From the NCBI RefSeq assembly GCF_003790525.1, contig NZ_CP033635.1: a stretch of 64,000 nt of DNA, one strand, 5' to 3'. The notes under the pieces were generated by a model. That model saw only the letters and a program-made list of their open reading frames with translations, did not search any database and had not been told where the DNA came from. The DNA is from Escherichia coli. Its GTDB lineage: Bacteria; Pseudomonadota; Gammaproteobacteria; Enterobacterales; Enterobacteriaceae. This document shows positions 1 through 48,960 of this stretch, one piece after another. Within the stretch, counting starts at the first letter, position 1. Every line of letters starts with the position of its first letter. The position numbers and the translations under genes are program-made.

Positions 1-216
1 ATGAGCACCGGCCGTAAGCACGTTATGTTATTGTTTCATTAGTAATAATCACTTAAATGTATCGATGAAACAGGTATGACTTAGCGGGAGTGATTGTTTC
101 TGAGTGAACAGAGACCACTTTAGCCTGATAAATGAAAAATGAGCGATTTTTGCAAGTTAGTTTTTCTATAGCCGAGTACGCTCAGCGCCTCGCTTGATTA
201 CAATGAGGTTGCTGCT

Positions 217-1161
217 ATGAGTCCTGATAATATCGGTTCGGCTGTCAATCGCTTCTCAGGTTGGCCATCTAATGATCCTCTAAAAACAGATAACGAATCA
301 ATGACATCACCCGTGGCTGTGCAGGTAATAAAGATGATTGCCGCCATCCTTGACCCATATCGGATAGTCGTTGGAATCGATACACTTTATACAACGCAGC
401 GCGAAACATTTACCTCAGAGAGTCAACAGCTCATTGAATCAGCATTGCAAACACTTCATGTGATAAATTTAAATAACCTGGAAACAAATCTCGATGAGGA
501 CGGTCACTATCTGGCTTTTGGATATAACGTTGACACTCCTGACAGAATAACCGTTTCTGCTTATAATGAAAAAAAGCCTGGCTGCTATGGCCAATGTCTT
601 TTAATACAGGATGACGAAACAGACTTATTTAACCTGATAAAAGTTAAAATTTTTGAAGCCAGGCATAATTATGTCGCTCAATTGATGAGAGATCCGGAAT
701 TTATGTTCAAATTTAGTTATAGCGCTCAACAAAATAGATTAGAACCTCATCTTCTGGTTCCCACTTATTTCCCTCTAAAAACAAACGAACCGGTTACGCA
801 AGAGGATGTACTGTTACTTTATCGTTTCTTTAAAATGGATGGTGATTTTAATATATTAACATCAGATGAATACATGAGTATCATGACACCTCTGATGAAG
901 TGTGAGCGTAGCATCCACGACCACAACAGGTATGTGACGGGCAAAGATACCCTTCTTCTGGACTATCCTCCTTCTGGTAACCAGATATATTTCCATATTT
1001 TTCCTGACGAATCAGCAACACTAGTCCTTTATTTTTCAAACAATGACATTGAATGTTTCGTCTTTGAAAGAGATATTCCGAGCCAGTATCGCTTTTTCAA
1101 AATGTTTACCAATCTGGCACTGGTTATTGATCAGTTAACTGATGCCAATCAAATACTTTAA
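217..1161 (+). CDS. hypothetical protein, 314 aa, low-GC, no recognisable family
   Basis: ORF with AGG-type RBS about 9 nt upstream of the ATG. N-terminus is Ser/Thr/Asn/Pro-rich with no hydrophobic signal peptide. Internal repeated motif YRFFKM appears twice. GC clearly below the core genes in the window. Confidence 0.55.
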   Translation: MSPDNIGSAVNRFSGWPSNDPLKTDNESMTSPVAVQVIKMIAAILDPYRIVVGIDTLYTTQRETFTSESQQLIESALQTLHVINLNNLETNLDEDGHYLAFGYNVDTPDRITVSAYNEKKPGCYGQCLLIQDDETDLFNLIKVKIFEARHNYVAQLMRDPEFMFKFSYSAQQNRLEPHLLVPTYFPLKTNEPVTQEDVLLLYRFFKMDGDFNILTSDEYMSIMTPLMKCERSIHDHNRYVTGKDTLLLDYPPSGNQIYFHIFPDESATLVLYFSNNDIECFVFERDIPSQYRFFKMFTNLALVIDQLTDANQIL

Positions 1162-1241
1162 TTTTTATATATTCCCTGTGGCAAATATTGCTAAACAATG
1201 CCTGGGGATTAATTTTTATTACTCACGGAAAGATTTAAATA

Positions 1242-1664
1242 ATGATCCCATCTCAAATCTCTTTCAACACCCTTCCTGTCAATGCAACATACGCTTCAGA
1301 GACAACAGTTGACACACAAAAATTCTCTGACATCCTCTACTCAGCGGGGTGTTCCCTAAAGGATCTGGCTTATCTGAGCAGATGTCTGGCATCAATACAT
1401 CCGACTATCGCCAAAAACATTTATGAAACAGAAAATCTCAGCGATCAAAAATTACTACATATTGATTGCCGTAGTACAAATGAAATCAAGATAAATATCT
1501 TTTTTGGTCAACAACGAGAAGGATTAATTGAAATTAATTCTGACACTGTCATTTTTTCGATATTGTCTTCATTAATTGACTCCGCCATTTCTAAATTTCA
1601 ACACCAAATCCCCGTTAACGGTTCAGTTAATCGTGAACTATTGTATGAGGATTATACTGATTAA
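1242..1664 (+). CDS. hypothetical small acidic protein, 140 aa, partner of upstream ORF
   Basis: ORF starts 80 bp downstream of the 314-aa ORF on the same strand. By my count about 20 Asp/Glu against about 10 Lys/Arg. No transmembrane segment or signal peptide seen. Confidence 0.45.
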   Translation: MIPSQISFNTLPVNATYASETTVDTQKFSDILYSAGCSLKDLAYLSRCLASIHPTIAKNIYETENLSDQKLLHIDCRSTNEIKINIFFGQQREGLIEINSDTVIFSILSSLIDSAISKFQHQIPVNGSVNRELLYEDYTD

Positions 1665-2210
1665 ATCCACCCAGTCGCGAAAATGGCCTGCGTTATTGCC
1701 AGAGGTAATAAAACCTTTGATTAACGTTACTCATACTGGTAGCACCTTCATGTACCTCTCTTTTTTACGAAAAATCAAAAGAGCTAACTAAGGTCATAAT
1801 TCGCATGAATCATTAACCATTTGTTATTTTCAACATTATTTTTACATTAAGCAGAGATGAATTGCAGTGAAATTCGACTTAAATTTTATGAAATGCATTT
1901 ACTCATGGCTAAACCCATATCACTAAAATGCAAATTAGAAGTAGATCACAAATACCTCAATACACCAAATCAAGTTAATTTTAAAAATTTAACATTCATG
2001 ACATTAGTTGACATAACACACTGAATTAACATGAGAATTTAACAACATACTTTAAACAATCATTTCCCGAAAGACATTTTGAAAATAGATCAATTGCAAC
2101 ATTACGGTCAGATAAAGACACTCCTGTGATATTAAACCTGTGCCGTTATGAACGGCCATAAATACGACGTGTGTAACTTATTTTACTCTCTGTCTTACAA
2201 AGGATTACCC
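1665..2210. promoter_or_regulatory. AT-rich non-coding leader / promoter region upstream of the glutamate mutase operon
   Basis: About 540 bp without a convincing ORF, visibly far more AT-rich than the flanking genes, immediately upstream of the first gene of a six-gene coupled operon. Confidence 0.4.
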
Positions 2211-2660
2211 ATGAAGAAAGCAACACTTGTGATTGGCGTTATTGGCGCGGACTGCCATGCAGTAGGCAATAAAGTTCTGGACCGCGTTTTTAGCAACCAT
2301 GGCTTCAGAGTCATTAATCTGGGCGTAATGGTCAGCCAGGACGAATATATTGATGCGGCCATTGAAACTGGCGCTGACGCGATTGTCGTCTCCTCTATCT
2401 ATGGGCATGGCGATATCGACTGTCTGGGCATGCGCGAACGCTGCATCGAGCGTGGACTGGGGGACATCCTGCTCTATGTGGGCGGTAACCTGGTGGTCGG
2501 AAAACATGACTTCGCTGACGTGGAAACCAAATTCAAAGAGATGGGATTTGATCGCGTCTTTGCCCCAAGTCATGACTTAGAAGATGTTTGTCAGCTGATG
2601 GCCCACGATATCAACCAACGTCATGACGTTGATACTCGTATTCTTGAAGAGGCAATCTGA
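2211..2660 (+). CDS. glutamate mutase S (sigma) subunit, B12-binding component of methylaspartate mutase
   Basis: Translation from [21 protein letters not shown] matches the cobalamin-binding small subunit, including the DxHxxG motif (DCHAVG). Start chosen at the internal ATG preceded by AAGGA; the track ORF starts 21 codons earlier. Confidence 0.85.
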
Positions 2661-4048
2661 TGCAAATCGTCTCTGTCGATATTGGATCGACGTGGACCAA
2701 AGCAGCCCTCTTCGCCCGGGAGGGGGACGCGTTAACGTTGGTTAACCACGTACTGACCCCAACCACCACCCATCATCTGGCGAAGGGGTTTTTCTCCAGC
2801 CTGAACCTGGTGTTAAACGTAGATAATGCCCTCCCCCTGTTTAACAACGGTGAGGTTGCATTGAAGTATTCCTCCTCTGCCAAAGGTGGGCTGGCGGTTG
2901 CCGCAATGGGGTTGGTGCCTTCTATCACCCTGGAAACCGCGAAAGTAACCGCTCACTCTGCGGGGGCTAAAATTGCGCAATATTACTCCTACAAGCTGAA
3001 CCGCCGTGATATCCAGGCACTGGAAGAAACGCAGCCCGATATTCTCTTGTTCACCGGCGGCACCGACGGCGGAGAAGAAAGCTACGGCCTGAATAACGCC
3101 CGTGTGCTGGCAGAATCCAAACTCGACTGCGCCATTATTTATGCCGGAAACCGGGATATTCAGGACGAGGTGCAGGAGATCCTAGGGCATAAAGACCTGA
3201 CCATCGTCGACAACGTTCTGCCCGATCTTGACCATCCGAACCCTTTAGCTGCACGCCAGGCTATCTGCGACATATTCCTTAAACGCATCGTTAAAGGGAA
3301 AGGGCTGGATGTCGTTGTTGATAAAACAGGCGAAGAACCAATGCCGACACCGTGGACAGTCTTTGAACTGGTTAAGGCAATCAGTAATGTCGATCACAGC
3401 TGGAAAGAGTTCATGCTGATCGACATGGGTGGCGCAACCACCGATGTCTATTCCGCCTGTGCCAACACGCTCTCGCCCGACACCGTTTTACACGGCGTAC
3501 CGGAACCCTTCGTGAAACGGACGGTGGAAGGCGATCTGGGAATGCGCGTCTCGGCAATGGTGGTTGGTGAAAGTGCGAAAGAGTTAGTCAATGTGAATTT
3601 TGCTCAGCAACCCGCACAGCTGGACGCTTTTTATCATTACCTCCGTCATCTAGTCGCTCATCCCGACTACTTACCCGCGAATGCAGAAGAAAAATATTTC
3701 GATACCGTCCTGGCCGGACTGTGTGTGGGTTATGCCACCGAAAGACATGCGGGCACCAAAAAAGAGGTCTGCACCTGTGTCGGCAATGTCGATTTACAGA
3801 TGGGACGTGACCTGACAACCGTGCGTAAAGTCGTCGGAACCGGCGGATGGCTCTCGCGTGCCAGTCAGTTCGATATGCATCACTGGTTGAAATACCGCGA
3901 GTTAAACGACGACGGTAAACGCATTCTCTTACCGACCGAATTTGAATATTACCGCGATTCCCGGGGGCTATTACCACTGCTGGCAAACGTCGCCAGAGTC
4001 GATCCGCTGGCCGCCGCGCGCACCAGTATTCAATGCTTAACCCTATAA
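2660..4048 (+). CDS. glutamate mutase L component (MutL/GlmL-type accessory protein)
   Basis: 462-aa ORF whose ATG overlaps the upstream stop (TGATG), sitting between the S and E subunit genes as in clostridial glutamate mutase operons. Confidence 0.75.
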   Translation: MQIVSVDIGSTWTKAALFAREGDALTLVNHVLTPTTTHHLAKGFFSSLNLVLNVDNALPLFNNGEVALKYSSSAKGGLAVAAMGLVPSITLETAKVTAHSAGAKIAQYYSYKLNRRDIQALEETQPDILLFTGGTDGGEESYGLNNARVLAESKLDCAIIYAGNRDIQDEVQEILGHKDLTIVDNVLPDLDHPNPLAARQAICDIFLKRIVKGKGLDVVVDKTGEEPMPTPWTVFELVKAISNVDHSWKEFMLIDMGGATTDVYSACANTLSPDTVLHGVPEPFVKRTVEGDLGMRVSAMVVGESAKELVNVNFAQQPAQLDAFYHYLRHLVAHPDYLPANAEEKYFDTVLAGLCVGYATERHAGTKKEVCTCVGNVDLQMGRDLTTVRKVVGTGGWLSRASQFDMHHWLKYRELNDDGKRILLPTEFEYYRDSRGLLPLLANVARVDPLAAARTSIQCLTL

Positions 4049-4066
4049 CAATTAAGGCTGCAATCA

Positions 4067-5512
4067 ATGGAACTTCGAAATAAGAAATTAACCCATGACG
4101 AATTCATGACCGAGCGGCAACAGGTACTGAAAACCTGGGAAACCGGCAAGGATGTTGAAAACTTTGAAGATGGCGTTAAATACCAACAAACCATTCCTGA
4201 GCATAAACGCTTCTCTCTTGCCCTGCTGAAAGCAGACAAGGAAGGTAAAACTCTTAGCCAACCGCGCGCAGGCGTGGCGCTGATGGACGAACACATCGAA
4301 CTACTGAAAACACTACAAGAAGAATGCGATCTGCTGCCGAGCACCATCGACGCATATACCCGTCTGAATCGGTACGAAGAAGCGGCTGTAGGGATTAAAA
4401 AATCCATCGAAGCCGGAACCTCTAAACTGAACGGTTTACCGGTCGTTAACCACGGCGTCGCAGCTTGCCGTCGCCTCACCGAAACTTTGCAAAAACCGCT
4501 ACAGATCCGCCACGGCACGCCAGATGCGCGTCTGCTGGCTGAAATCTCGATGGCCAGCGGCTTTACCAGTTATGAAGGCGGCGGCATTTCCTACAATATT
4601 CCGTATGCCAAGCGCGTAACGCTGGAAAAATCGATCCGCGACTGGCAGTACTGCGACCGTTTAATGGGGATGTATGAAGAACACGGGATCCGCATCAACC
4701 GCGAACCGTTTGGCCCACTAACGGGTACCCTGATCCCGCCGTTTATCTCGCACTCTATCGCGATAATCGAAGGCTTGCTGGCGCTGGAACAGGGTGTGAA
4801 ATCTATCACCGTTGGTTATGGACAGGTCGGCAGCCTGACGCAGGATGTTGCGGCGATCCAGTCTCTGCGTGAACTTGCACACGAATATTTTCAGAGCTAT
4901 GGCTATACCGACTATGAATTAAGTACCGTGTTTCACCAGTGGATGGGCGGCTTTCCGGAAGACGAATCGAAAGCGTTCGCTATTATCTCCTGGGGCGCAG
5001 CCGTCGCGGGGATGTCTGGTGCCACCAAAGTCATCACCAAAAGTCCGCACGAAGCCTGGGGTATCCCGACTGCCGCTGCCAACATTCAGGGGCTGAAAGC
5101 CTCCCGCCAGATGCTCAACATGGTCAACGAGCAGAAATTCCCGCCGTGCCCTGCGGTTGAACTGGAAATTGAACTGATTAAGAGCGAGGTTCGCGCGGTA
5201 CTGAATAAAGTGTTCGAACTGGGTAATGGTGATATTGCGCGCGGTACGGTGCTGGCATTTGAAGCGGGCGTACTGGATGTGCCGTTTGCGCCAGCCGCCT
5301 GCAACGCGGGCAAAATTCTTCCGGTCCGTGACAACACCGGCGCGATACGCGTACTGGAAGCCGGAGCCGTTCCATTGCCAAAAGATATTCTCGACCTCCA
5401 CCACGATTACGTTGCGGAACGCGCACGCTTTGAAGGACGCCAACCGACATTCCAGATGGTTGTAGATGACATCAATGCTGTATCCCACAGTAAATTAATA
5501 GGAAGACCATAA
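4067..5512 (+). CDS. glutamate mutase E (epsilon) catalytic subunit
   Basis: 481-aa translation (MELRNKKLTHDEF ... FQMVVDDINAVSHSKLIGRP) colinear with clostridial GlmE/MutE across its full length. Confidence 0.9.
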   Translation: MELRNKKLTHDEFMTERQQVLKTWETGKDVENFEDGVKYQQTIPEHKRFSLALLKADKEGKTLSQPRAGVALMDEHIELLKTLQEECDLLPSTIDAYTRLNRYEEAAVGIKKSIEAGTSKLNGLPVVNHGVAACRRLTETLQKPLQIRHGTPDARLLAEISMASGFTSYEGGGISYNIPYAKRVTLEKSIRDWQYCDRLMGMYEEHGIRINREPFGPLTGTLIPPFISHSIAIIEGLLALEQGVKSITVGYGQVGSLTQDVAAIQSLRELAHEYFQSYGYTDYELSTVFHQWMGGFPEDESKAFAIISWGAAVAGMSGATKVITKSPHEAWGIPTAAANIQGLKASRQMLNMVNEQKFPPCPAVELEIELIKSEVRAVLNKVFELGNGDIARGTVLAFEAGVLDVPFAPAACNAGKILPVRDNTGAIRVLEAGAVPLPKDILDLHHDYVAERARFEGRQPTFQMVVDDINAVSHSKLIGRP

Positions 5513-6753
5513 TGAAAATAAAACAGGCTCTGTTCACCGCTGGCTACTCCTCATTCTATTTCGATGACCAGCAGGCGATAAAAAACGGAGCGGGTCATGA
5601 CGGCTTTTTTTATACCGGGGAGCCGGTAACACAGGGGTTTAACGCCGTTCGTCAGGCCGGGGAGTGCGTATCGGTACAGTTGATTCTGGAAAACGGCGCG
5701 GTCGCCGTAGGTGACTGTGCTGCCGTACAGTATTCCGGGGCAGGTGGTCGCGATCCACTGTTCCTCGCTGAGCACTTTATTCCGTTCCTCAACGACCATA
5801 TCAAGCCATTACTGGTAGGCCGCGATGTGGATGCTTTCCTGCCGAATGCCCGTTTCTTCGACAAATTGCGTATTGACGGCAACTTGCTGCATACCGCCGT
5901 GCGCTACGGATTATCACAGGCGCTGCTTGATGCTACCGCGCTGGCAACCGGCCGTCTGAAAACTGAAGTGGTCTGTGATGAATGGCAGTTGCCACGCGTG
6001 GCGGAATCCATTCCATTATTTGGTCAGAGCGGGGACGATCGATATATCGCCGTCGATAAGATGATCCTTAAGGGCATCGACGTGCTGCCCCATGCACTGA
6101 TTAATAACGTCGAAGAGAAACTGGGCTTTAAAGGTGAAAAACTGCGCGAATATGTCCGCTGGCTGTCGGATCGTATTCTGAGCAAGCGCACCAGCGCACG
6201 CTACCACCCTACCCTGCACATCGATGTATACGGCACTATCGGTCTGATCTTCGATATGGATCCGCTTCGCTGTGCGCAATACATCGCCAGCCTGGAAAAA
6301 GAAGCGCAAGGCCTGCCGCTCTACATTGAAGGGCCGGTCGATGCCGGTAACAAGCCCGATCAAATTCGCCTGCTGACCGCGATTACCAAAGAGCTGACGC
6401 GCCTCGGTTCCGGCGTGAAAATTGTGGCCGATGAATGGTGTAACACCTACCAGGATATTGTTGATTTCACTGATGCCGCCAGTTGCCACATGGTGCAAAT
6501 CAAAACCCCGGATCTGGGCAGTATTCACAACATCGTCGATGCAGTTCTTTATTGCAACAGCCACAGCATGGAAGCGTACCAGGGCGGCACCTGCAATGAA
6601 ACTGATGTCAGTGCCCGCACCTGTGTCCACGTCGCCCTTGCCGCTCGCCCCATGCGTATGCTGGTAAAACCAGGGATGGGCTTTGACGAAGGCCTCGATA
6701 TCGTCTTCAACGAAATGAATCGTACTATCGCGCTGTTGCAGGCTAAGGATTAA
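5512..6753 (+). CDS. 3-methylaspartate ammonia-lyase
   Basis: 413-aa translation colinear with clostridial methylaspartase (conserved blocks AVQYSGAGGRDPLF, HALINNVEEKLG, HMVQIKTPDLG, CNETD). Start overlaps the glmE stop. Confidence 0.92.
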   Translation: MKIKQALFTAGYSSFYFDDQQAIKNGAGHDGFFYTGEPVTQGFNAVRQAGECVSVQLILENGAVAVGDCAAVQYSGAGGRDPLFLAEHFIPFLNDHIKPLLVGRDVDAFLPNARFFDKLRIDGNLLHTAVRYGLSQALLDATALATGRLKTEVVCDEWQLPRVAESIPLFGQSGDDRYIAVDKMILKGIDVLPHALINNVEEKLGFKGEKLREYVRWLSDRILSKRTSARYHPTLHIDVYGTIGLIFDMDPLRCAQYIASLEKEAQGLPLYIEGPVDAGNKPDQIRLLTAITKELTRLGSGVKIVADEWCNTYQDIVDFTDAASCHMVQIKTPDLGSIHNIVDAVLYCNSHSMEAYQGGTCNETDVSARTCVHVALAARPMRMLVKPGMGFDEGLDIVFNEMNRTIALLQAKD

Positions 6754-6756
6754 CAA

Positions 6757-8127
6757 ATGGCTCGTTCTTTTAAAGTCTTATCGCCAACGGCAATCCTCGG
6801 GTATGGATTCCCGGAAGAGAGCTTCCGCAAAGCGATGGCAGAATCGCCCGATCTGATCGCCGTTGATGCAGGCTCTTCCGATCCTGGCCCCCACTACCTC
6901 GGGGCGGGCAAACCGTTTACCGATCGCGCAGGGGTCAAGCGTGATTTGCGCTATATGATCACCGCAGGCGTGCAAAATAATATACCGGTGGTGATCGGAA
7001 CGGCCGGCGGTTCTGGTGCCGCTCCACACCTGGAGTGGTGCCGAGAAATAATTCATGAGATTGCCCGGGAAGAGCAACTCGCGTTCTCGATGGCGCTGAT
7101 CCCGGCAGACGTTGACAAAGCCATCGTCCACCAGGCGCTGGATAACGGCAAAATCACGGCGCTGGATTTTGTCCCGCCGTTAACCCACGACGCGATTGAC
7201 GAAAGTACGTATATCGTCGCGCAAATGGGCATCGAACCCTTCCAGCGGGCGCTGAAAGAAGGCGCGCAAGTGGTGCTGGGCGGGCGCGCTTACGACCCGG
7301 CCTGCTTTGCTGCGCTCCCGATCATGCAAGGCTTTGATGAAGGTCTGGCGCTGCATTGTGGGAAAATCCTTGAATGCGCGGCAATCGCCGCAACGCCCGG
7401 CTCAGGCTCTGACTGTGCGATGGGCATCATTGATGACAACGGCTTTACGCTGAAGACATTTAATCCGAAGCGTAAATTTACCGAAACGTCAGCGGCTGCA
7501 CACACACTGTATGAGAAATCCGATCCCTACTTCCTGCCTGGACCTGGCGGCGTGTTGAACCTGAAAGGCTGCACATTTAAAGCGGTCAATGACGGCGAAG
7601 TGTACGTCAGCGGTTCTAAGCATGAAGAAACGCCGTATGCCCTGAAACTGGAAGGTGCGCGACGGGTGGGCTTCCGCTGTCTGACCATCGCAGGAACGCG
7701 CGACCCGATCATGATCGCCGGGATCGATAAAATCATCGATGAAGTCAAAACCAGCGTTTCACGTAACCTGTCGCTCGACGATGACAGCATTCGCATCAAT
7801 TTCCACCTGTACGGCAAAAACGGGGTGATGGGCGACCATGAACCGATGCAAACTGCCGGGCATGAGCTGGGGATTGTCCTTGATGTAGTTGCACCGACCC
7901 AGGAAATTGCCAATAGCGTTTGCTCGCTGGTGCGCTCTACCATGCTGCACTACGGCTATGAAAACCGCATCGCTACCGCAGGCAATCTGGCGTTCCCGTT
8001 CTCCCCTTCTGATATCCAGGGCGGGCCGGTATACGAATTTTCCATATATCACCTGATTGAAGCCAACGACGCTCTGCGTTTTGATTTCCATATTGAACAG
8101 GTGACGCCAGAAGGAGTTCAGGCATGA
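6757..8127 (+). CDS. uncharacterised 456-aa protein, possibly DUF1446/AtuA-like
   Basis: ORF begins 4 nt after the methylaspartase stop in the same operon. Family assignment is from memory and tentative; no catalytic motif recognised. Confidence 0.6.
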   Translation: MARSFKVLSPTAILGYGFPEESFRKAMAESPDLIAVDAGSSDPGPHYLGAGKPFTDRAGVKRDLRYMITAGVQNNIPVVIGTAGGSGAAPHLEWCREIIHEIAREEQLAFSMALIPADVDKAIVHQALDNGKITALDFVPPLTHDAIDESTYIVAQMGIEPFQRALKEGAQVVLGGRAYDPACFAALPIMQGFDEGLALHCGKILECAAIAATPGSGSDCAMGIIDDNGFTLKTFNPKRKFTETSAAAHTLYEKSDPYFLPGPGGVLNLKGCTFKAVNDGEVYVSGSKHEETPYALKLEGARRVGFRCLTIAGTRDPIMIAGIDKIIDEVKTSVSRNLSLDDDSIRINFHLYGKNGVMGDHEPMQTAGHELGIVLDVVAPTQEIANSVCSLVRSTMLHYGYENRIATAGNLAFPFSPSDIQGGPVYEFSIYHLIEANDALRFDFHIEQVTPEGVQA

Positions 8128-8441
8128 AACAGTCAATTGTCTCACTGGCGCAAGTCATTCGTTCGAAAAATGCCGGACCTTACGAACTGGTTTTAGATAT
8201 TTTATTTAAAACGAAAGAAAACTATGAGCGAGTTAAATCATCAGGGCAATTAACCCCAGAACTGATTGCGCGCTTATATCATGTTGAACCTGACTTTATT
8301 CACCGTATTGTCTGGTTTGATCCTTCTAACGCAGTAAAAATCGTCATGCCACGAGATATTATCTCCGGGAATGTAGGTGACAATGATGTCTATGGTGCAC
8401 AGCAACATGCACCTTTATTAAATATGAGTTTCGATTTGTAA
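8124..8441 (+). CDS. uncharacterised 105-aa protein, possibly DUF4387-like partner of the upstream ORF
   Basis: Start overlaps the upstream stop by 4 nt (ATGA). Family assignment tentative. Confidence 0.55.
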   Translation: MKQSIVSLAQVIRSKNAGPYELVLDILFKTKENYERVKSSGQLTPELIARLYHVEPDFIHRIVWFDPSNAVKIVMPRDIISGNVGDNDVYGAQQHAPLLNMSFDL

Positions 8442-8601
8442 AAATCCGAATACTTTTAGCCAACTGACATCCCGTCACTTATTGCAGTTCAACACTTCAG
8501 CTATTTGTAAGGTTGTAATAGCAGGTAGATGCCTGAATCTCTATTCAGGCTTCTACTTCTCCTGATTCTGATTTATCGCCGTGCACCTGATGGAGGAAAA
8601 A

Positions 8602-9882
8602 ATGAAGAAAATAAGTTTAACCACGATGATTCTTTTGGCGCTGGTACTTGGAATGATTATCGGCGTAGTGCTCAATAACACTGCTTCACCGGAAACCGCA
8701 AAACTCTATGCGCAAGAAATATCGATATTCACGACGATTTTCTTACGACTGATAAAAATGATTATCGCTCCGTTAGTGGTCTCTACCCTGGTGGTAGGTA
8801 TAGCTAAAATGGGAGATGCCAAAGCCCTTGGTCGTATTTTTTCTAAAACACTCTTTTTATTTATTTGCGCCTCATTGCTGTCAATCGCCTTAGGCTTGAT
8901 AACAGTAAATTTCTTCATGCCAGGCACAGGAATTAATTTTGTTGCACACGGAGCCGAAACCACCGGAGTGGTCGCGTCAGAACCCTTTACGCTAAAAGTA
9001 TTTATTTCGCATGCTTTCCCCACCAGCATTGTCGATGCCATGGCGCACAATGAAATTTTGCAAATCGTGGTGTTCTCAATTTTCCTCGGCTGTAGCCTGA
9101 CGGCGATTGGTGAGAAAGGCAGCGCCATCGTTCACGCCTTAGATTCGCTGGCACATGCCATGTTAAAGCTCACTGGCTACGTCATGCTCTTCGCTCCCCT
9201 GACCGTATTCGCCGCTATTTCAGCATTGATTGCTGAACGAGGACTGGCAGTTATGGTGAGCGCCGGGATCTTTATGGGTGAATTTTATTTCACCATGTTG
9301 TTACTTTGGGTGCTGCTTATCGGTCTGGCCATCGTTTATGTCGGCCCCTGCATCAGACGCCTGACCCGTGCCCTTTCGGAACCCGCCCTGCTGGCATTTA
9401 CCACATCCAGTTCTGAAGCGGCTTTTCCGGGAACGCTTGAAAAACTGGAGCAATTTGGCGTTTCCCCCAAAATTGCCAGCTTTGTCTTACCCATTGGCTA
9501 CTCATTTAATCTCGTTGGATCAATGGCCTACTGCTCCTTCGCCACAGTTTTCATCGCCCAGGCCTGCAATATCCATTTATCCATCGGTGAGCAAATCACC
9601 ATGCTGTTGATCCTGATGTTGACCTCGAAAGGAATGGCTGGCGTACCACGCGCCTCAATGGTGGTTATCGCCGCCACGCTCAACCAGTTCAATATTCCGG
9701 AAGCGGGGCTGATCTTGCTGATGGGCGTTGATCCGTTCCTTGATATGGGGCGTTCCGCGACAAACGTCATGAGCAACGCAATGGGCGCTGCGATGGTGAG
9801 TCGGTGGGAAGGCGAACATTTCGGCGAGGGCTGTCGGGGTAAAGCATTAAAACCCAATGAATCGAACGTTGCTCTGCCCTGA
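8602..9882 (+). CDS. dicarboxylate/amino acid:cation symporter (GltP/DctA family)
   Basis: Multi-pass hydrophobic protein with GltP-like blocks. Start set at the ATG (MKKISL) preceded by GGAGG; the track ORF begins at an upstream GTG. Confidence 0.8.
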   Translation: MKKISLTTMILLALVLGMIIGVVLNNTASPETAKLYAQEISIFTTIFLRLIKMIIAPLVVSTLVVGIAKMGDAKALGRIFSKTLFLFICASLLSIALGLITVNFFMPGTGINFVAHGAETTGVVASEPFTLKVFISHAFPTSIVDAMAHNEILQIVVFSIFLGCSLTAIGEKGSAIVHALDSLAHAMLKLTGYVMLFAPLTVFAAISALIAERGLAVMVSAGIFMGEFYFTMLLLWVLLIGLAIVYVGPCIRRLTRALSEPALLAFTTSSSEAAFPGTLEKLEQFGVSPKIASFVLPIGYSFNLVGSMAYCSFATVFIAQACNIHLSIGEQITMLLILMLTSKGMAGVPRASMVVIAATLNQFNIPEAGLILLMGVDPFLDMGRSATNVMSNAMGAAMVSRWEGEHFGEGCRGKALKPNESNVALP

Positions 9883-9989
9883 GGGGGATCTTAAGCAATC
9901 AGAAGCCAATGACTACGCATTTTTATAAGCCGGATCATGAAGTTAGACGGCAATTAAGTAAAACTAACGTTTAAGGTGAAAAGTGAAAT

Positions 9990-11642
9990 ATGTCCAAACC
10001 ATTTATCTGGCAAGAACCGTTTCTACAAAATAAAGACGGTACAGAATATACATTAATTAGCGATCAACATATTACAGTAACGGAATTAGACGGCGAAGAA
10101 GTGATAAAAATCGCTCCTGAAGCATTAACGCTGCTTGCCCGGCAGGCATTTTATGAAGCCTCTTTTTTCTTACGTTCCGCTCATTTGCAACAGGTCGCCA
10201 GCATTCTTAACGATCCGCACGCCAGTAGTAATGATAAATACGTTGCGTTGCAGTTATTACGTAATGCTGAAGTCTCAGCAAAAGGGGTATTACCCAACTG
10301 TCAGGATACCGGCACCGCAACTATTGTTGCCAGTAAAGGGCAACAGATATGGACCGGAGGTAACGACGCTGAAGCCTTAAGCAAAGGCATTTACACCACT
10401 TTTCAGGAAAATAATCTGCGCTTTTCACAAAATGCGCCACTGGATATGTTTACCGAAGTCAATACGCAAACCAATCTCCCGGCGCAGATTGATATCAGCG
10501 CCGTCGCTGGTGATGAGTACCATTTTCTCTGTATTAATAAAGGGGGCGGCTCTGCCAATAAAGCCGCGCTTTATCAGGAAACCAAATCCCTATTGCAACC
10601 AGAAAAACTGACCGCATTTTTAATCGAAAAAATGAAATCGCTGGGCACCGCTGCCTGCCCGCCTTACCACATCGCCTTTGTCGTCGGAGGGCTTTCAGCC
10701 GATCAAACCTTAAAAGTTGCCAAGCTGGCCTCAACGAAATATTACGACAATTTGCCCACCAGCGGAAACGAGCAAGGACAAGCATTCCGTGATATTGAGC
10801 TGGAAAAAGTATTGCTCGAGGCCAGTCAGCAATTTGGTATTGGTGCGCAATTTGGGGGTAAATATTTCGCTCATGATATTCGCGTCATTCGTCTGCCGCG
10901 TCACGGTGGCTCTTGCCCGATAGCTATGGCGCTCTCCTGTTCTGCGGATCGCAATATCAAAGCAAAAATTAACAAGCACGGTATCTGGCTGGAAAAACTC
11001 GAACACAATCCGGGGCAATATATTCCAGCCTCACTGCGGGAAGAAAATCACGCGCAACATGTACAGCTGGATCTAAACCGTCCGTTGCGTGACGTGATGC
11101 AGGATCTCGCCAGATTACCGGTAGGCACCCGCGTGTCGTTAAGTGGTCCCATCGTAGTGGCGCGCGATATCGCCCACGCCAAAATAAAAGCGCGGCTGGA
11201 TAGCGGCGAACCGATGCCGGATTACCTGAAGCATCATATTGTCTATTACGCTGGCCCGGCGAAAACACCGGAGAACATGGCCTGCGGTTCACTGGGTCCA
11301 ACCACGGGCGGTCGAATGGACGGTTATGTCGATACCTTCCAGGCGGCTGGCGGCAGTCTGGTGATGTTATCGAAAGGTAACCGCAGCCAGCAGGTCACCG
11401 ATGCCTGTCACAAACATGGCGGCTTCAATCTGGGGAGTATTGGCGGTGCAGCTGCGTTACTGGCGCAAGAATATGTCAAAAGTCTGCGTTGCCTGGAATA
11501 CCCGGAGCTGGGTATGGAAGCGGTGTGGATGATGGAAGTGGAAAATTTACCCGCATTCATCCTGGTAGATGATAAAGGCAATAATTTCTTTAGTCAGTTT
11601 GAGCAGCAACACCGCTGCGCCAGTTGCCCTGCGGGACATTAA
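9990..11642 (+). CDS. class I (Fe-S) fumarate hydratase paralog, FumA/FumB-like; candidate mesaconase
   Basis: 550-aa translation colinear with E. coli FumA (e.g. [35 protein letters not shown]). The mesaconase role is inferred from operon context only. Confidence 0.85.
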
Positions 11643-11651
11643 GGAAAATGA

Positions 11652-12254
11652 ATGGAAGCGCGAATTTCAACTGAACGGCATGTGCAGCGCCAGCAGAAAT
11701 TGAAGGAACAGGTCGATACGCGCGTCGCGGCGGCGATAGAGAAAAAAGGGATTTTGATTGTTTTCACCGGCAATGGCAAAGGGAAATCCACTGCCGCGTT
11801 TGGTACTGTGACGCGCGCGGTGGGTCATGGCAAAACGGTGGGGGTTGCGCAGTACATCAAGGGGCAATGGGACAACGGCGAATACAACCTTCTCCAGCCG
11901 CTGGGGGTTGAGTTTCATATTATGGGAACCGGTTTTACCTGGGAGACACAGAACCGGCAAGCGGATATCGACGCGGCGAAAGAGGTCTGGTCGGAAAGCA
12001 AACGGATGCTGGCTGACAAGCGTTACGACTTAGTGGTGCTTGATGAGCTGACCTATATGCTGGCTTACCATTATCTGGATACCGAAGAAGTGATCGCTTC
12101 TCTGCAAAACCGCCCGGCACAACAAAGTGTCATTGTCACCGGACGCGGTTGCCACAGTCAGATATTAAAAATGGCGGATACGGTCAGCGAAATCCGCCCC
12201 GTCAAACATGCTTTTGATAACGGCATTCAGGCCCAGCCGGGTATCGACTGGTAA
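11652..12254 (+). CDS. corrinoid adenosyltransferase paralog (BtuR/CobA family)
   Basis: 200-aa translation closely colinear with E. coli BtuR, including the P-loop-like block IVFTGNGKGKSTAAFG. Confidence 0.85.
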   Translation: MEARISTERHVQRQQKLKEQVDTRVAAAIEKKGILIVFTGNGKGKSTAAFGTVTRAVGHGKTVGVAQYIKGQWDNGEYNLLQPLGVEFHIMGTGFTWETQNRQADIDAAKEVWSESKRMLADKRYDLVVLDELTYMLAYHYLDTEEVIASLQNRPAQQSVIVTGRGCHSQILKMADTVSEIRPVKHAFDNGIQAQPGIDW

Positions 12255-12287
12255 TAACTGCGCCTGGCATCCCGCCAGGCGCAGGTT

Positions 12288-13193
12288 TTACATCTCCTGC
12301 GGTACGACCGATTTCGCCAGCAACCATTCACGAAATTGCTGCAAGTGCGGTGAGTCAGACTTCTCTTCCTGCCACGTCATAATAAAACGATTACCGGTAC
12401 GAATAGGCACATCACAGGGAATCACCATATCGCCACTATCCAAATCATGTTGAATAGCGAACCGTGGTAACAGCGCCACGCCGAGATTAGAGCGCACGGC
12501 GGCAATCAGCATTGAAAGCAAATCGAAACGTGGTCCGTTATTGACCAGCGGACTGCTAACGCCAGATAAAGCAAACCACTCTTCCCAGCCAGTAATACGG
12601 GTGCTTTGATGCAGAAGTGGTAACTCAGTAAGCAGTTCTGCCACTGACAGTTTTTGATCGGACATTGCAAGCAAACTGCCGCTGCATACCGGCAAAATCT
12701 CCTCATCAAAGAGATATTCTACTTCCGCCCAGGGCGCGCAAAAATTTTCGCGCATAATGACAGCATCGTACTCCCGATTAAGAAAATCGCCGTTATTAGC
12801 TAAAGAATGAATATTAACAATAATATCGGGATGTAACTTTGTGAATTCATGTAAATTTGGGATTAACCAGTGGGTACTAAACGTAGGATTCACGGCAAGT
12901 TCAATAACCTGAACCGTAGGCTGCCAGGTCATAATGGTATTGGTATCGCGTTCCAGCTTATTTAATGTTTCTTTTACTATCCCCAGGTAATACTTCCCTG
13001 CATCATTAAGAAAAATGCGTTTTTTAGAGTGTGAAAATAACGGAGTATGTAAAAATTCCTCCAGCGCACTTACTTGTCTGAATACTGCACTTTGGGTTAA
13101 CGCTAACTCCTCTGCCGCTCTGGTATAACTTTCATGACGTGCGACGACCTCAAAAGTCACCAGCAGTTCCGTTTTAGGTATTTTTCCTCGCAT
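12288..13193 (-). CDS. LysR-family transcriptional regulator
   Basis: 301-aa ORF with an N-terminal helix-turn-helix (TRAAEELALTQSAVFRQVSALEE) and a LysR substrate-binding domain. Convergent with the upstream operon. Confidence 0.85.
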   Translation of the reverse strand: MRGKIPKTELLVTFEVVARHESYTRAAEELALTQSAVFRQVSALEEFLHTPLFSHSKKRIFLNDAGKYYLGIVKETLNKLERDTNTIMTWQPTVQVIELAVNPTFSTHWLIPNLHEFTKLHPDIIVNIHSLANNGDFLNREYDAVIMRENFCAPWAEVEYLFDEEILPVCSGSLLAMSDQKLSVAELLTELPLLHQSTRITGWEEWFALSGVSSPLVNNGPRFDLLSMLIAAVRSNLGVALLPRFAIQHDLDSGDMVIPCDVPIRTGNRFIMTWQEEKSDSPHLQQFREWLLAKSVVPQEM

Positions 13194-13770
13194 AATGCCT
13201 TCCCTTAAAAATAGTTGAAACTATCAAAAAACCATTACTTATTGCTAAGTAATGGCAACCAAAGCAGCAATCAATATTTTATAAAAATCATGTTCGATAT
13301 TTATAACCTGGTAAGCCTGGCGTGACAATTGTCTTAATCAGATAATAATAATCCGAAAAGCACAGCACCTTTCGAATTATCAGGAATTACATTAAGTGAA
13401 AATTATTAAATTGATATCATTTATCATATCTGTGGATATTATGATAAACAATCAACATAGATTTTATTTTTGATTTATAGCATATCCCTCTAAGAATTTT
13501 TGCGATGCTTCAATATCCGGGGTAAAGACCCGATCCTGACTGACAAATGGCACGACTTGACGATAAGCGGTGAACATCGCTTTTGTTGATTTACTTAACG
13601 CTACGGTCAAACGCTGGGAAGCCAGTGCATCAGGTAACGATTCGAAATTCGCCGTCGTTCTTATTCGTGGCTTGCGGTCGGTCGCGGCAATCCACAGTGG
13701 CTGTGGTCATGCAGTCAAGCCTGCAGTCAGATTCCGACCGTGGTTAACGTTTAAGGCATAAAAAAGGCCA

Positions 13771-13858
13771 TCATATGATGGCCAACCATGTCGAAACCGA
13801 CAGCCCTTCGCCATTCCTGTAGAGGGAAGCGGCGAGGGCTATTTCTTATTACAGATAT
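13771..13858 (-). ncRNA. sdhX: sucD 3'-UTR small RNA (SdhX/RybD-type) ending in an intrinsic terminator
   Basis: Region immediately after the sucD stop on the minus strand ends in the perfect palindrome GGCCATCATATGATGGCC followed by a T-run. Identity as SdhX rests on position and recollection; 5' end approximate. Confidence 0.45.
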
Positions 13859-14728
13859 TTATTTCAGAACAGTTTTCAGTGCTTCACCGATATCCGCCAG
13901 GCTGCGAACGGTTTTCACGCCTGCGGCTTCCAGAGCAGCAAATTTCTCATCCGCAGTCCCTTTCCCACCGGCAATGATGGCACCCGCGTGGCCCATACGT
14001 TTGCCTTTCGGCGCAGTCACACCAGCGATGTAACCCACAACAGGCTTGGTAACGTGCTCTTTGATGTACGCAGCCGCTTCTTCTTCAGCGCTACCGCCGA
14101 TCTCACCGATCATCACGATCGCTTCGGTCTGCGGATCTTTTTCGAACATTTCGAGGATGTCGATAAAGTTAGAGCCAGGGATCGGGTCGCCGCCGATACC
14201 AACACAGGTCGACTGACCGAAACCGTAATCCGTGGTCTGTTTAACCGCTTCATAGGTCAGTGTACCGGAACGGGAAACGATACCCACTTTACCCGGTTTG
14301 TGAATGTGACCAGGCTGGATACCGATTTTGCATTCACCCGGAGTGATAACGCCCGGGCAGTTCGGGCCGATCATGCGAACGCCCGCTTCATCCAGTTTCA
14401 CCTTCACGGTCAGCATATCCAGCGTCGGGATGCCTTCAGTGATGGTGATAATCAGTTTGATGCCTGCATCAATAGCTTCCAGAATGGAGTCTTTGCAGAA
14501 CGGTGCTGGTACGTAGATAACAGAAGCGGTAGCGCCAGTAGCAGCAACAGCTTCACGCACGGTGTTGAACACCGGCAGGCCGAGGTGGGTGGTGCCGCCT
14601 TTACCTGGGGTTACGCCGCCAACCATTTTAGTGCCGTATGCAATAGCCTGTTCTGAGTGGAAAGTCCCCTGGCTACCGGTAAAGCCCTGGCAGATAACCT
14701 TGGTGTTTTTATCAATTAAAATGGACAT
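13859..14728 (-). CDS. sucD: succinyl-CoA synthetase alpha subunit
   Basis: 289-aa translation recognised as SucD. Confidence 0.97.
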
Positions 14729-48804: not shown

Positions 48805-48855
48805 TTTGAATTCCCTTGAGCTATTCAGTTTGTTGGCAAAGTGCTCGTTGTTCAT

Positions 48856-48960
48856 GCCGGATGCGGCGTGAACGTCTTATCCGGCCTACAAAATCGCGTA
48901 AATTCAATATATTGCACCATCTTCCCAAGCCTGATAAGCGTAGCGCATCAGGCAGTCATA
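48856..48960. repeat. REP (repetitive extragenic palindrome) cluster between ybfP and pgm
   Basis: GCCGGATGCGGCGTGAACGTCTTATCCGGCCTAC and GCCTGATAAGCGTAGCGCATCAGGC match the enterobacterial REP consensus. Confidence 0.8.

Follow-up and report, generated by a model that had tools for sequence, protein, structure and literature searches.

The window analysed here, a stretch of 64,000 nucleotides of Escherichia coli DNA, is matched at 100% by E. coli SMS-3-5. It carries sucD on the minus strand, the final gene of the sdhCDAB-sucABCD operon, with a TAA stop codon at 13859-13861 and a 3' untranslated region (UTR) that runs downward from 13858. Immediately downstream of this stop, on the same strand and at the end of the sdh-suc operon, lies the sequence of the small RNA (sRNA) SdhX, and the remnants of genes that differ from those of K-12 begin at its 3' end. 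The features are listed below with their sources in brackets:

13859..14728, minus strand: sucD coding sequence, succinyl-CoA synthetase alpha (ORF list and RefSeq annotation of the identical SMS-3-5 sequence)
13758..13858, minus strand: sdhX, the full 101-nt SdhX (RybD) sRNA, which is the sucD 3' UTR (99/101 identical to K-12 ncRNA b4764)
13802..13840, minus strand: 5' hairpin of the long SdhX form, nt 19-57 (MFE structure; identical to K-12)
13785..13795, minus strand: conserved seed UUCGACAUGGU, nt 64-74 (direct reading; definition from PMC6393394)
13766..13783, minus strand: terminator hairpin GGCCAUC-AUAU-GAUGGCC, nt 76-93 (terminator scan)
13758..13765, minus strand: U-tract plus AU tail UUUUUUAU, nt 94-101 (alignments and BLAST end points)
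13659..13761, plus strand: remnant of a convergent rtcB gene (tblastn of the intact RtcB of FDAARGOS_497, Pfam PF01139; DNA matches of 98% and 89%)
13464..13657, minus strand: remnants of the 3' part of a histidine/aromatic ammonia-lyase (HAL/PAL) gene (blastn against locus L003 and the annotation of L003)
12288..13193, minus strand: LysR-family regulator (annotation; Pfam HTH_1 and LysR_substrate)

The reference for sdhX is the K-12 gene b4764 (NC_000913.3, 765050-765150), annotated as a 101-nt ncRNA directly after sucD. The minus-strand sequence of the window, read directly as AUAUCUGUAAUAAGAAAUAGCCCUCGCCGCUUCCCUCUACAGGAAUGGCGAAGGGCUGUCGGUUUCGACAUGGUUGGCCAUCAUAUGAUGGCCUUUUUUAU, is identical to it at 99 of 101 positions, including all of nt 1-82, and the two differences are a G to A change at nt 83, in the terminator loop, and a G to A change at nt 100, just past the U-tract. 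This agrees with the first-pass annotation, which had taken the region for SdhX and considered the stretch between the sucD stop and the terminator to be intact; the terminator sequence GGCCATCATATGATGGCC is likewise in place at 13766-13783. The interval given there, 13771-13858, was exact at its right end and fell short at its left end, since 13771 lies inside the hairpin; the whole sRNA extends over 13758-13858 and the part from the stop to the terminator over 13784-13858. When folded, the 101-nt RNA yields -41.3 kcal/mol, against -24.5 +/- 3.1 kcal/mol for shuffled sequences (z = -5.4).

A search of the whole window against Rfam 15 at the gathering threshold gave no SdhX/RybD match, and nothing attributable to SdhX/RybD was found for 13300-14100 at E<=10. 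Weak matches to RyhB (15 bits) and tmRNA (6.7 bits) were dismissed as chance. Rfam 15 appears to lack an SdhX/RybD family and, therefore, we built our own covariance model as an independent test, excluding all Escherichia sequences and using 19 other examples. The model produced a single match in the 64 kb, both strands considered, at 13758-13801 on the minus strand (56.6 bits, E=1.8e-10), and the runner-up in the window scored 14.5 bits, so that chance is no explanation for the match. On this evidence of alignment and model, the identification of 13758-13858 (minus strand) as sdhX, an sRNA that is already known, is secure. There is no ncRNA feature for sdhX in the RefSeq/PGAP annotation of SMS-3-5 and other non-K-12 genomes and, in genomes carrying an intact rtcB at this site, the RtcB coding sequence is the sole annotated feature that overlaps it.

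All the parts of the K-12 RNA recur in the window: the position directly after the sucD stop, the length of 101 nt, the seed, G62, the region around C34, the terminator stem and the U-tract. The 5' hairpin carries the Escherichia-specific CCCUCU stretch with C34, unchanged relative to K-12; G62, at 13797, is intact, so that both of the E. coli-specific determinants are present, and the GG|UUU context at nt 61-65 is also that of K-12. The seed lies directly 5' of the terminator, where the hairpin at 13766-13783 is followed on the minus strand by TTTTTTAT and was called as an intrinsic terminator. The loop change G83A turns the hairpin of this strain into a perfect 18-nt palindrome, which the hairpin of K-12 is not. 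The A at nt 100, in place of the G of K-12, is shared with the other Escherichia haplotypes examined and with most other genera, and the K-12 G therefore reads as a private SNP. We had considered nt 100 as a marker of the true breakpoint between conserved and variable DNA, and this was rejected since the mngR-type strain WP3-W18 also has A, the commonest state in other genera.

Among eight aligned Escherichia haplotypes, variation is confined to the 5' hairpin, the terminator loop and nt 100, whereas nt 48-82 and 84-99 are invariant, and the seed is thus unvaried in all eight. In E. albertii (locus L008) the changes C28U and G47A, which align to window positions 13831 and 13812, are compensatory and keep a pair of the 5' hairpin; they suggest that this Escherichia-specific hairpin is under structural constraint. 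For the wider comparison, a SucD-based scan with one genome per species gave 80 loci, and an end motif of the sucD 3' UTR, of the form ...U(U/C)CGACAUG(G/U)UUGGCC-loop-GGCCUUUUUUAU, was found in about 20 genera of Enterobacterales. In a cross-genus alignment of 19 non-Escherichia sequences the GACAU core within the seed is invariant and the wider core UCGACAU is near-invariant in these 19 other genera. The 7-bp terminator stem is paired in 100% of cells across the 19 genera, as against 24-62% in slid controls, with double-sided changes at four of the seven pairs. Conservation across the genera ends at ...UUUUUUAU.

The function of SdhX has been described by Miyakoshi et al., who reported that RNase E cuts it from the sdh-suc mRNA in forms of about 101 nt (87 nt in Salmonella) and 38 nt (PMC6393394; reviewed in PMC9438474). 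It binds Hfq, and its seed UUCGACAUGGU represses ackA (PMC6393394; PMC9438474). In E. coli, G62 is needed for action on fdoG and the upstream region with C34 is used against katG (PMC6393394). The Salmonella RNAs (SdhX1, 87 nt, and SdhX2, 38 nt) share with the window an origin at the 3' end of sucD, the seed and ackA as primary target, but they lack the katG-pairing 5' region and carry U in place of G62; their additional targets are fumB and yfbV, whereas those of E. coli SdhX are fdoG and katG, and the window has the E. coli version (PMC6393394). Like SdhX, the Hfq sRNAs CpxQ, SroC and NarS have a seed just upstream of the intrinsic terminator of the parental transcript and are released by RNase E processing rather than made from a promoter of their own (PMC9438474), while their parental operons, seeds and targets differ.

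In this strain SdhX would form the tail of an mRNA of about 10 kb, from sdhCDAB-sucABCD, ended by the intrinsic terminator at 13766-13783 and its U-tract, and RNase E would release from it species of about 101 nt and about 38 nt, both bound to Hfq, as published for K-12 and Salmonella. The seed, single-stranded, would then pair across the start codon of ackA, at CCAUGUCGA, and repress the synthesis of acetate kinase. As in other E. coli, G62 would extend pairing to fdoG, and the upstream CCCUCU would pair with the ribosome-binding site of katG. Since all of the SdhX determinants are unchanged here, the sRNA should work as in K-12, and we infer that it does so in this strain.

For ackA, the segment from -60 to +40 of SMS-3-5 is identical to that of K-12 and contains the 9-nt complement of the seed. 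The computed SdhX-ackA duplex energy, -17.1 kcal/mol, is about one standard deviation better than that of random 100-nt segments (-13.9 +/- 2.8 kcal/mol); duplex energy was dropped as a test of targeting since it fails to discriminate even the known ackA site. The case for ackA is therefore made from the literature and the exact conservation of the published site, and not from the computed energy. The possibility that SdhX also controls genes of the adjoining variable DNA, raised above all for the class I fumarase FumD by the repression of fumB by SdhX in Salmonella, was discarded as no better than background. Energies of duplexes between the seed and the start regions of 24 genes of the locus range from -8 to -14.4 kcal/mol, and fumD, at -12.6 kcal/mol and with complementarity to AUGUC only, is indistinguishable from the others.

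Past the 3' end of sdhX the window remains homologous to K-12 for two more bases, as far as 13756, and homology resumes only 373 bp upstream of cydA, outside the window. The earlier statement that foreign DNA begins immediately past the terminator is thus borne out to the extent that strain-specific DNA starts there. In K-12 the same interval contains mngR-mngA-mngB, so that the neighbour of sdhX is mngR there and an rtcB remnant followed by a lysR cluster here. The remnant consists of the C-terminal 15 codons of rtcB and a frame-shifted piece matching amino acids 375-398, and its stop codon TAA, at 13759-13761, overlaps nt 98-100 of sdhX. It is followed by remains of the ammonia-lyase gene, which is the last gene of a hut block that has been deleted. 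The first intact gene of the variable segment is lysR, in the same orientation as sucD and 565 nt downstream of it, and after it comes a cobO-fumD-methylaspartate (glutamate fermentation) cluster, which is the one with the mesaconase FumD that is known from O157:H7 (PMC4682846). The G+C content falls to 0.28-0.33 at 13200-13600, in the upstream region of lysR, as is typical of acquired DNA.

Three further observations concern this DNA and the rest of the window. A second terminator-like hairpin, which has 11 pairs and precedes UUUUUGAU, is found at 13231-13256 on the minus strand, directly before the ribosome-binding site of lysR; it could shield lysR from transcripts that read through from sdh-suc, or it could serve as a leader or an attenuator. 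The variable segment occupies positions 1-13757 of the window and carries two hypothetical genes towards its cydA side (about 217-1664). At 48826-48952 there is a 128-nt stretch with a 78% match in the K-12 DNA downstream of mngB (locus L002, 8646-8773), and this is probably a REP-type dispersed repeat.

In strains such as FDAARGOS_497, sdhX is followed by rtcB in convergent orientation, by a hut operon and finally by the lysR-methylaspartate cluster that the window also has; rtcB and the HAL gene are both intact there. The existence of this intact island elsewhere implies that the arrangement in the window is a deletion derivative, from which about 9 kb has been lost. Moreover, as the first DNA past sdhX is the decayed remnant of the convergent rtcB, the junction was inherited from the longer island.

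A survey of complete E. coli genomes showed sdhX to be present, at a coverage of at least 80%, in 5,424 of 5,426, always with at least 90% identity. Its neighbours fall into four classes that together account for 5,403 of 5,425 genomes, with about 22 outside them, these counts being BLAST coverage classes rather than junctions extracted genome by genome:

mngR (mngRAB): 3,867 genomes
lysR with rtcB remnant (lysR-methylaspartate, the type of the window): 833 genomes
TPR protein: 546 genomes
intact rtcB (rtcB-hut-lysR-methylaspartate): 157 genomes

All four haplotypes diverge at sdhX nt 101|102. Aligned representatives agree up to and including ...UUUUUU(A/G)U and become unrelated at nt 102 or 104, so that the tail UUUUUUAU comprises the last conserved bases and every haplotype breakpoint falls just after it. 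The only disrupted sdhX seen among the 5,426 complete genomes is that of FDAARGOS_944 (locus L005, 6224-6998), where an IS1 element lies inside the gene with a 9-bp target duplication, TCGACATGG, that is the seed itself; the element parts the copy of the seed plus terminator from the operon.

Most Enterobacterales have cydA directly after sucD, at a distance of 0.7-0.95 kb, which implies that mngRAB in K-12 is equally an insertion and that K-12 does not represent an empty site. Relative to K-12, the window shows a replacement. Other genera also have fillings at the sucD-cydA site: mngRA is found in Kluyvera, Enterobacter and Superficieibacter, two Citrobacter species carry lysR-cobO-fumD, with an amino-acid identity of about 85%, and one Enterobacter has a TPR gene. 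The gap between sucD and cydA is a recurrent insertion hotspot in the Enterobacteriaceae, with a left edge that is always the end of the SdhX terminator, and the window fills it, past nt 101, in one of at least four alternative ways.

These comparisons change how the junction is to be read. The first-pass annotation held that the insertion had respected the sRNA. SdhX is indeed intact at the edge; the same edge, however, occurs in all four haplotypes, and K-12 itself carries an insertion there. The boundary cannot be upheld as a property of this particular island either, since all haplotypes break at nt 101|102 and the rtcB remnant places the junction before the present island. With a boundary common to all E. 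coli haplotypes examined and to related genera, to speak of foreign DNA that respected the sRNA is to over-read the junction.

What, then, holds the edge at this nucleotide? Most likely the sharp boundary reflects selection on the seed and terminator together with inheritance of an old junction, and most likely no mechanism specific to this island is involved. Insertions that damaged the seed or the terminator would be removed by purifying selection, and the old junction would be inherited, with homologous recombination in the core genes on either side serving to spread it. A narrower account, in which the 3' stretch is kept solely as the terminator and stabilising end of the 10 kb operon mRNA and the sRNA has no bearing on where variable DNA starts, appears to us unlikely. 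It predicts a breakpoint at the end of the U-tract tail, exactly as observed, and it accords with the finding that a strain from which the entire 3' UTR is deleted has less SucD and grows poorly on acetate, whereas replacement of all but the terminator leaves SucD unchanged (PMC6393394). Termination does not require the seed, however, and yet no variation is seen in it within Escherichia, and its core hardly varies across 19 other genera, in which the stem changes by compensation; this argues that the sRNA part is itself constrained. The two accounts differ only in the selective force, the nature of the element being the same in both, and sequence alone cannot tell whether the sRNA or the operon terminator is what selection favours. 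Integration at the sRNA 3' end, with an att site that regenerates this end as at tRNA and tmRNA genes, would explain a nucleotide-sharp boundary common to several different cargo sets, and the hairpin is a perfect palindrome in this strain; islands at tRNA or tmRNA 3' ends resemble the window in that a conserved, structured RNA gene ends exactly where the variable DNA begins. In the window, by contrast, there is no integrase, att duplication or mobility gene, and metabolic cargo has been remodelled by deletion. No integrase or recombinase is annotated between sdhX and cydA in SMS-3-5, the adjoining sequence is a decayed gene end and not an att core, and the 32.6 kb locus contains neither a direct or inverted repeat of at least 9 nt common to both island ends nor, with as many as 6 mismatches allowed in 30 nt, another copy of the 3' end of sdhX. 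With neither integrase nor att-like repeats found to hint at a targeted mechanism, this one was rejected, and we regard it as highly improbable. The segment does show the variable presence among strains that is expected of a genomic island, with its four alternative fillings.

The sequences that abut the tail raise a further matter. The UUA within UUUUUUAU is the complement of a TAA stop codon used by unrelated convergent open reading frames in several genera, namely RtcB, MngR-like regulators of the GntR/UTRA kind and an ORF without a Pfam match in E. albertii and Superficieibacter. The overlapping stops, with an overlap of 4 nt, are located at L003 18098-18100, L008 8968-8970, L015 8935-8937 and L017 3290-3292, and also in L018 and L019. 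One could read the end of the SdhX terminator as a nucleotide-precise hotspot edge that has been reused, with unrelated convergent genes repeatedly fusing their stop into the tail, a proposal to which we attach little probability. A comparably small likelihood is given to an effect of the haplotype on SdhX, whereby neighbouring genes alter the amount of SdhX or link the island to the TCA operon, by antisense transcription over the terminator or by read-through into lysR. Since rtcB, the mngR-like genes and the third, unrelated ORF have their stops inside the terminator tail, convergent transcription would cross sdhX, and on the opposite strand the hairpin is not followed by a U-tract; lysR, for its part, is co-oriented with sucD at a distance of 565 nt and has the terminator-like hairpin just before its ribosome-binding site. 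This argument is purely positional, however, the convergent gene is dead in the window, and the pairing of SdhX with the start regions of island genes, fumD included, does not exceed background. The reading that we prefer, in which a known sdhX functions as in K-12 and is followed by one of at least four fillings of the sucD-cydA gap, at an edge set by selection and an inherited junction, is, taken as a whole, very probably correct.

RefSeq does not annotate sdhX in this strain, and the window should carry the annotation; beyond this correction of the annotation the finding matters little. If convergent genes are transcribed across the hairpin, SdhX abundance would be haplotype-dependent through antisense transcription and, were that true, the coordination of the TCA cycle with acetate metabolism would differ between E. 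coli lineages that have identical sdhX. The wider lesson is a modest one: conservation runs to the final base of an sRNA that is formed by a 3' UTR and joined to the terminator of its operon, and a hypervariable gap opens directly after it. The mngRAB arrangement of the K-12 reference is not the ancestral empty site.
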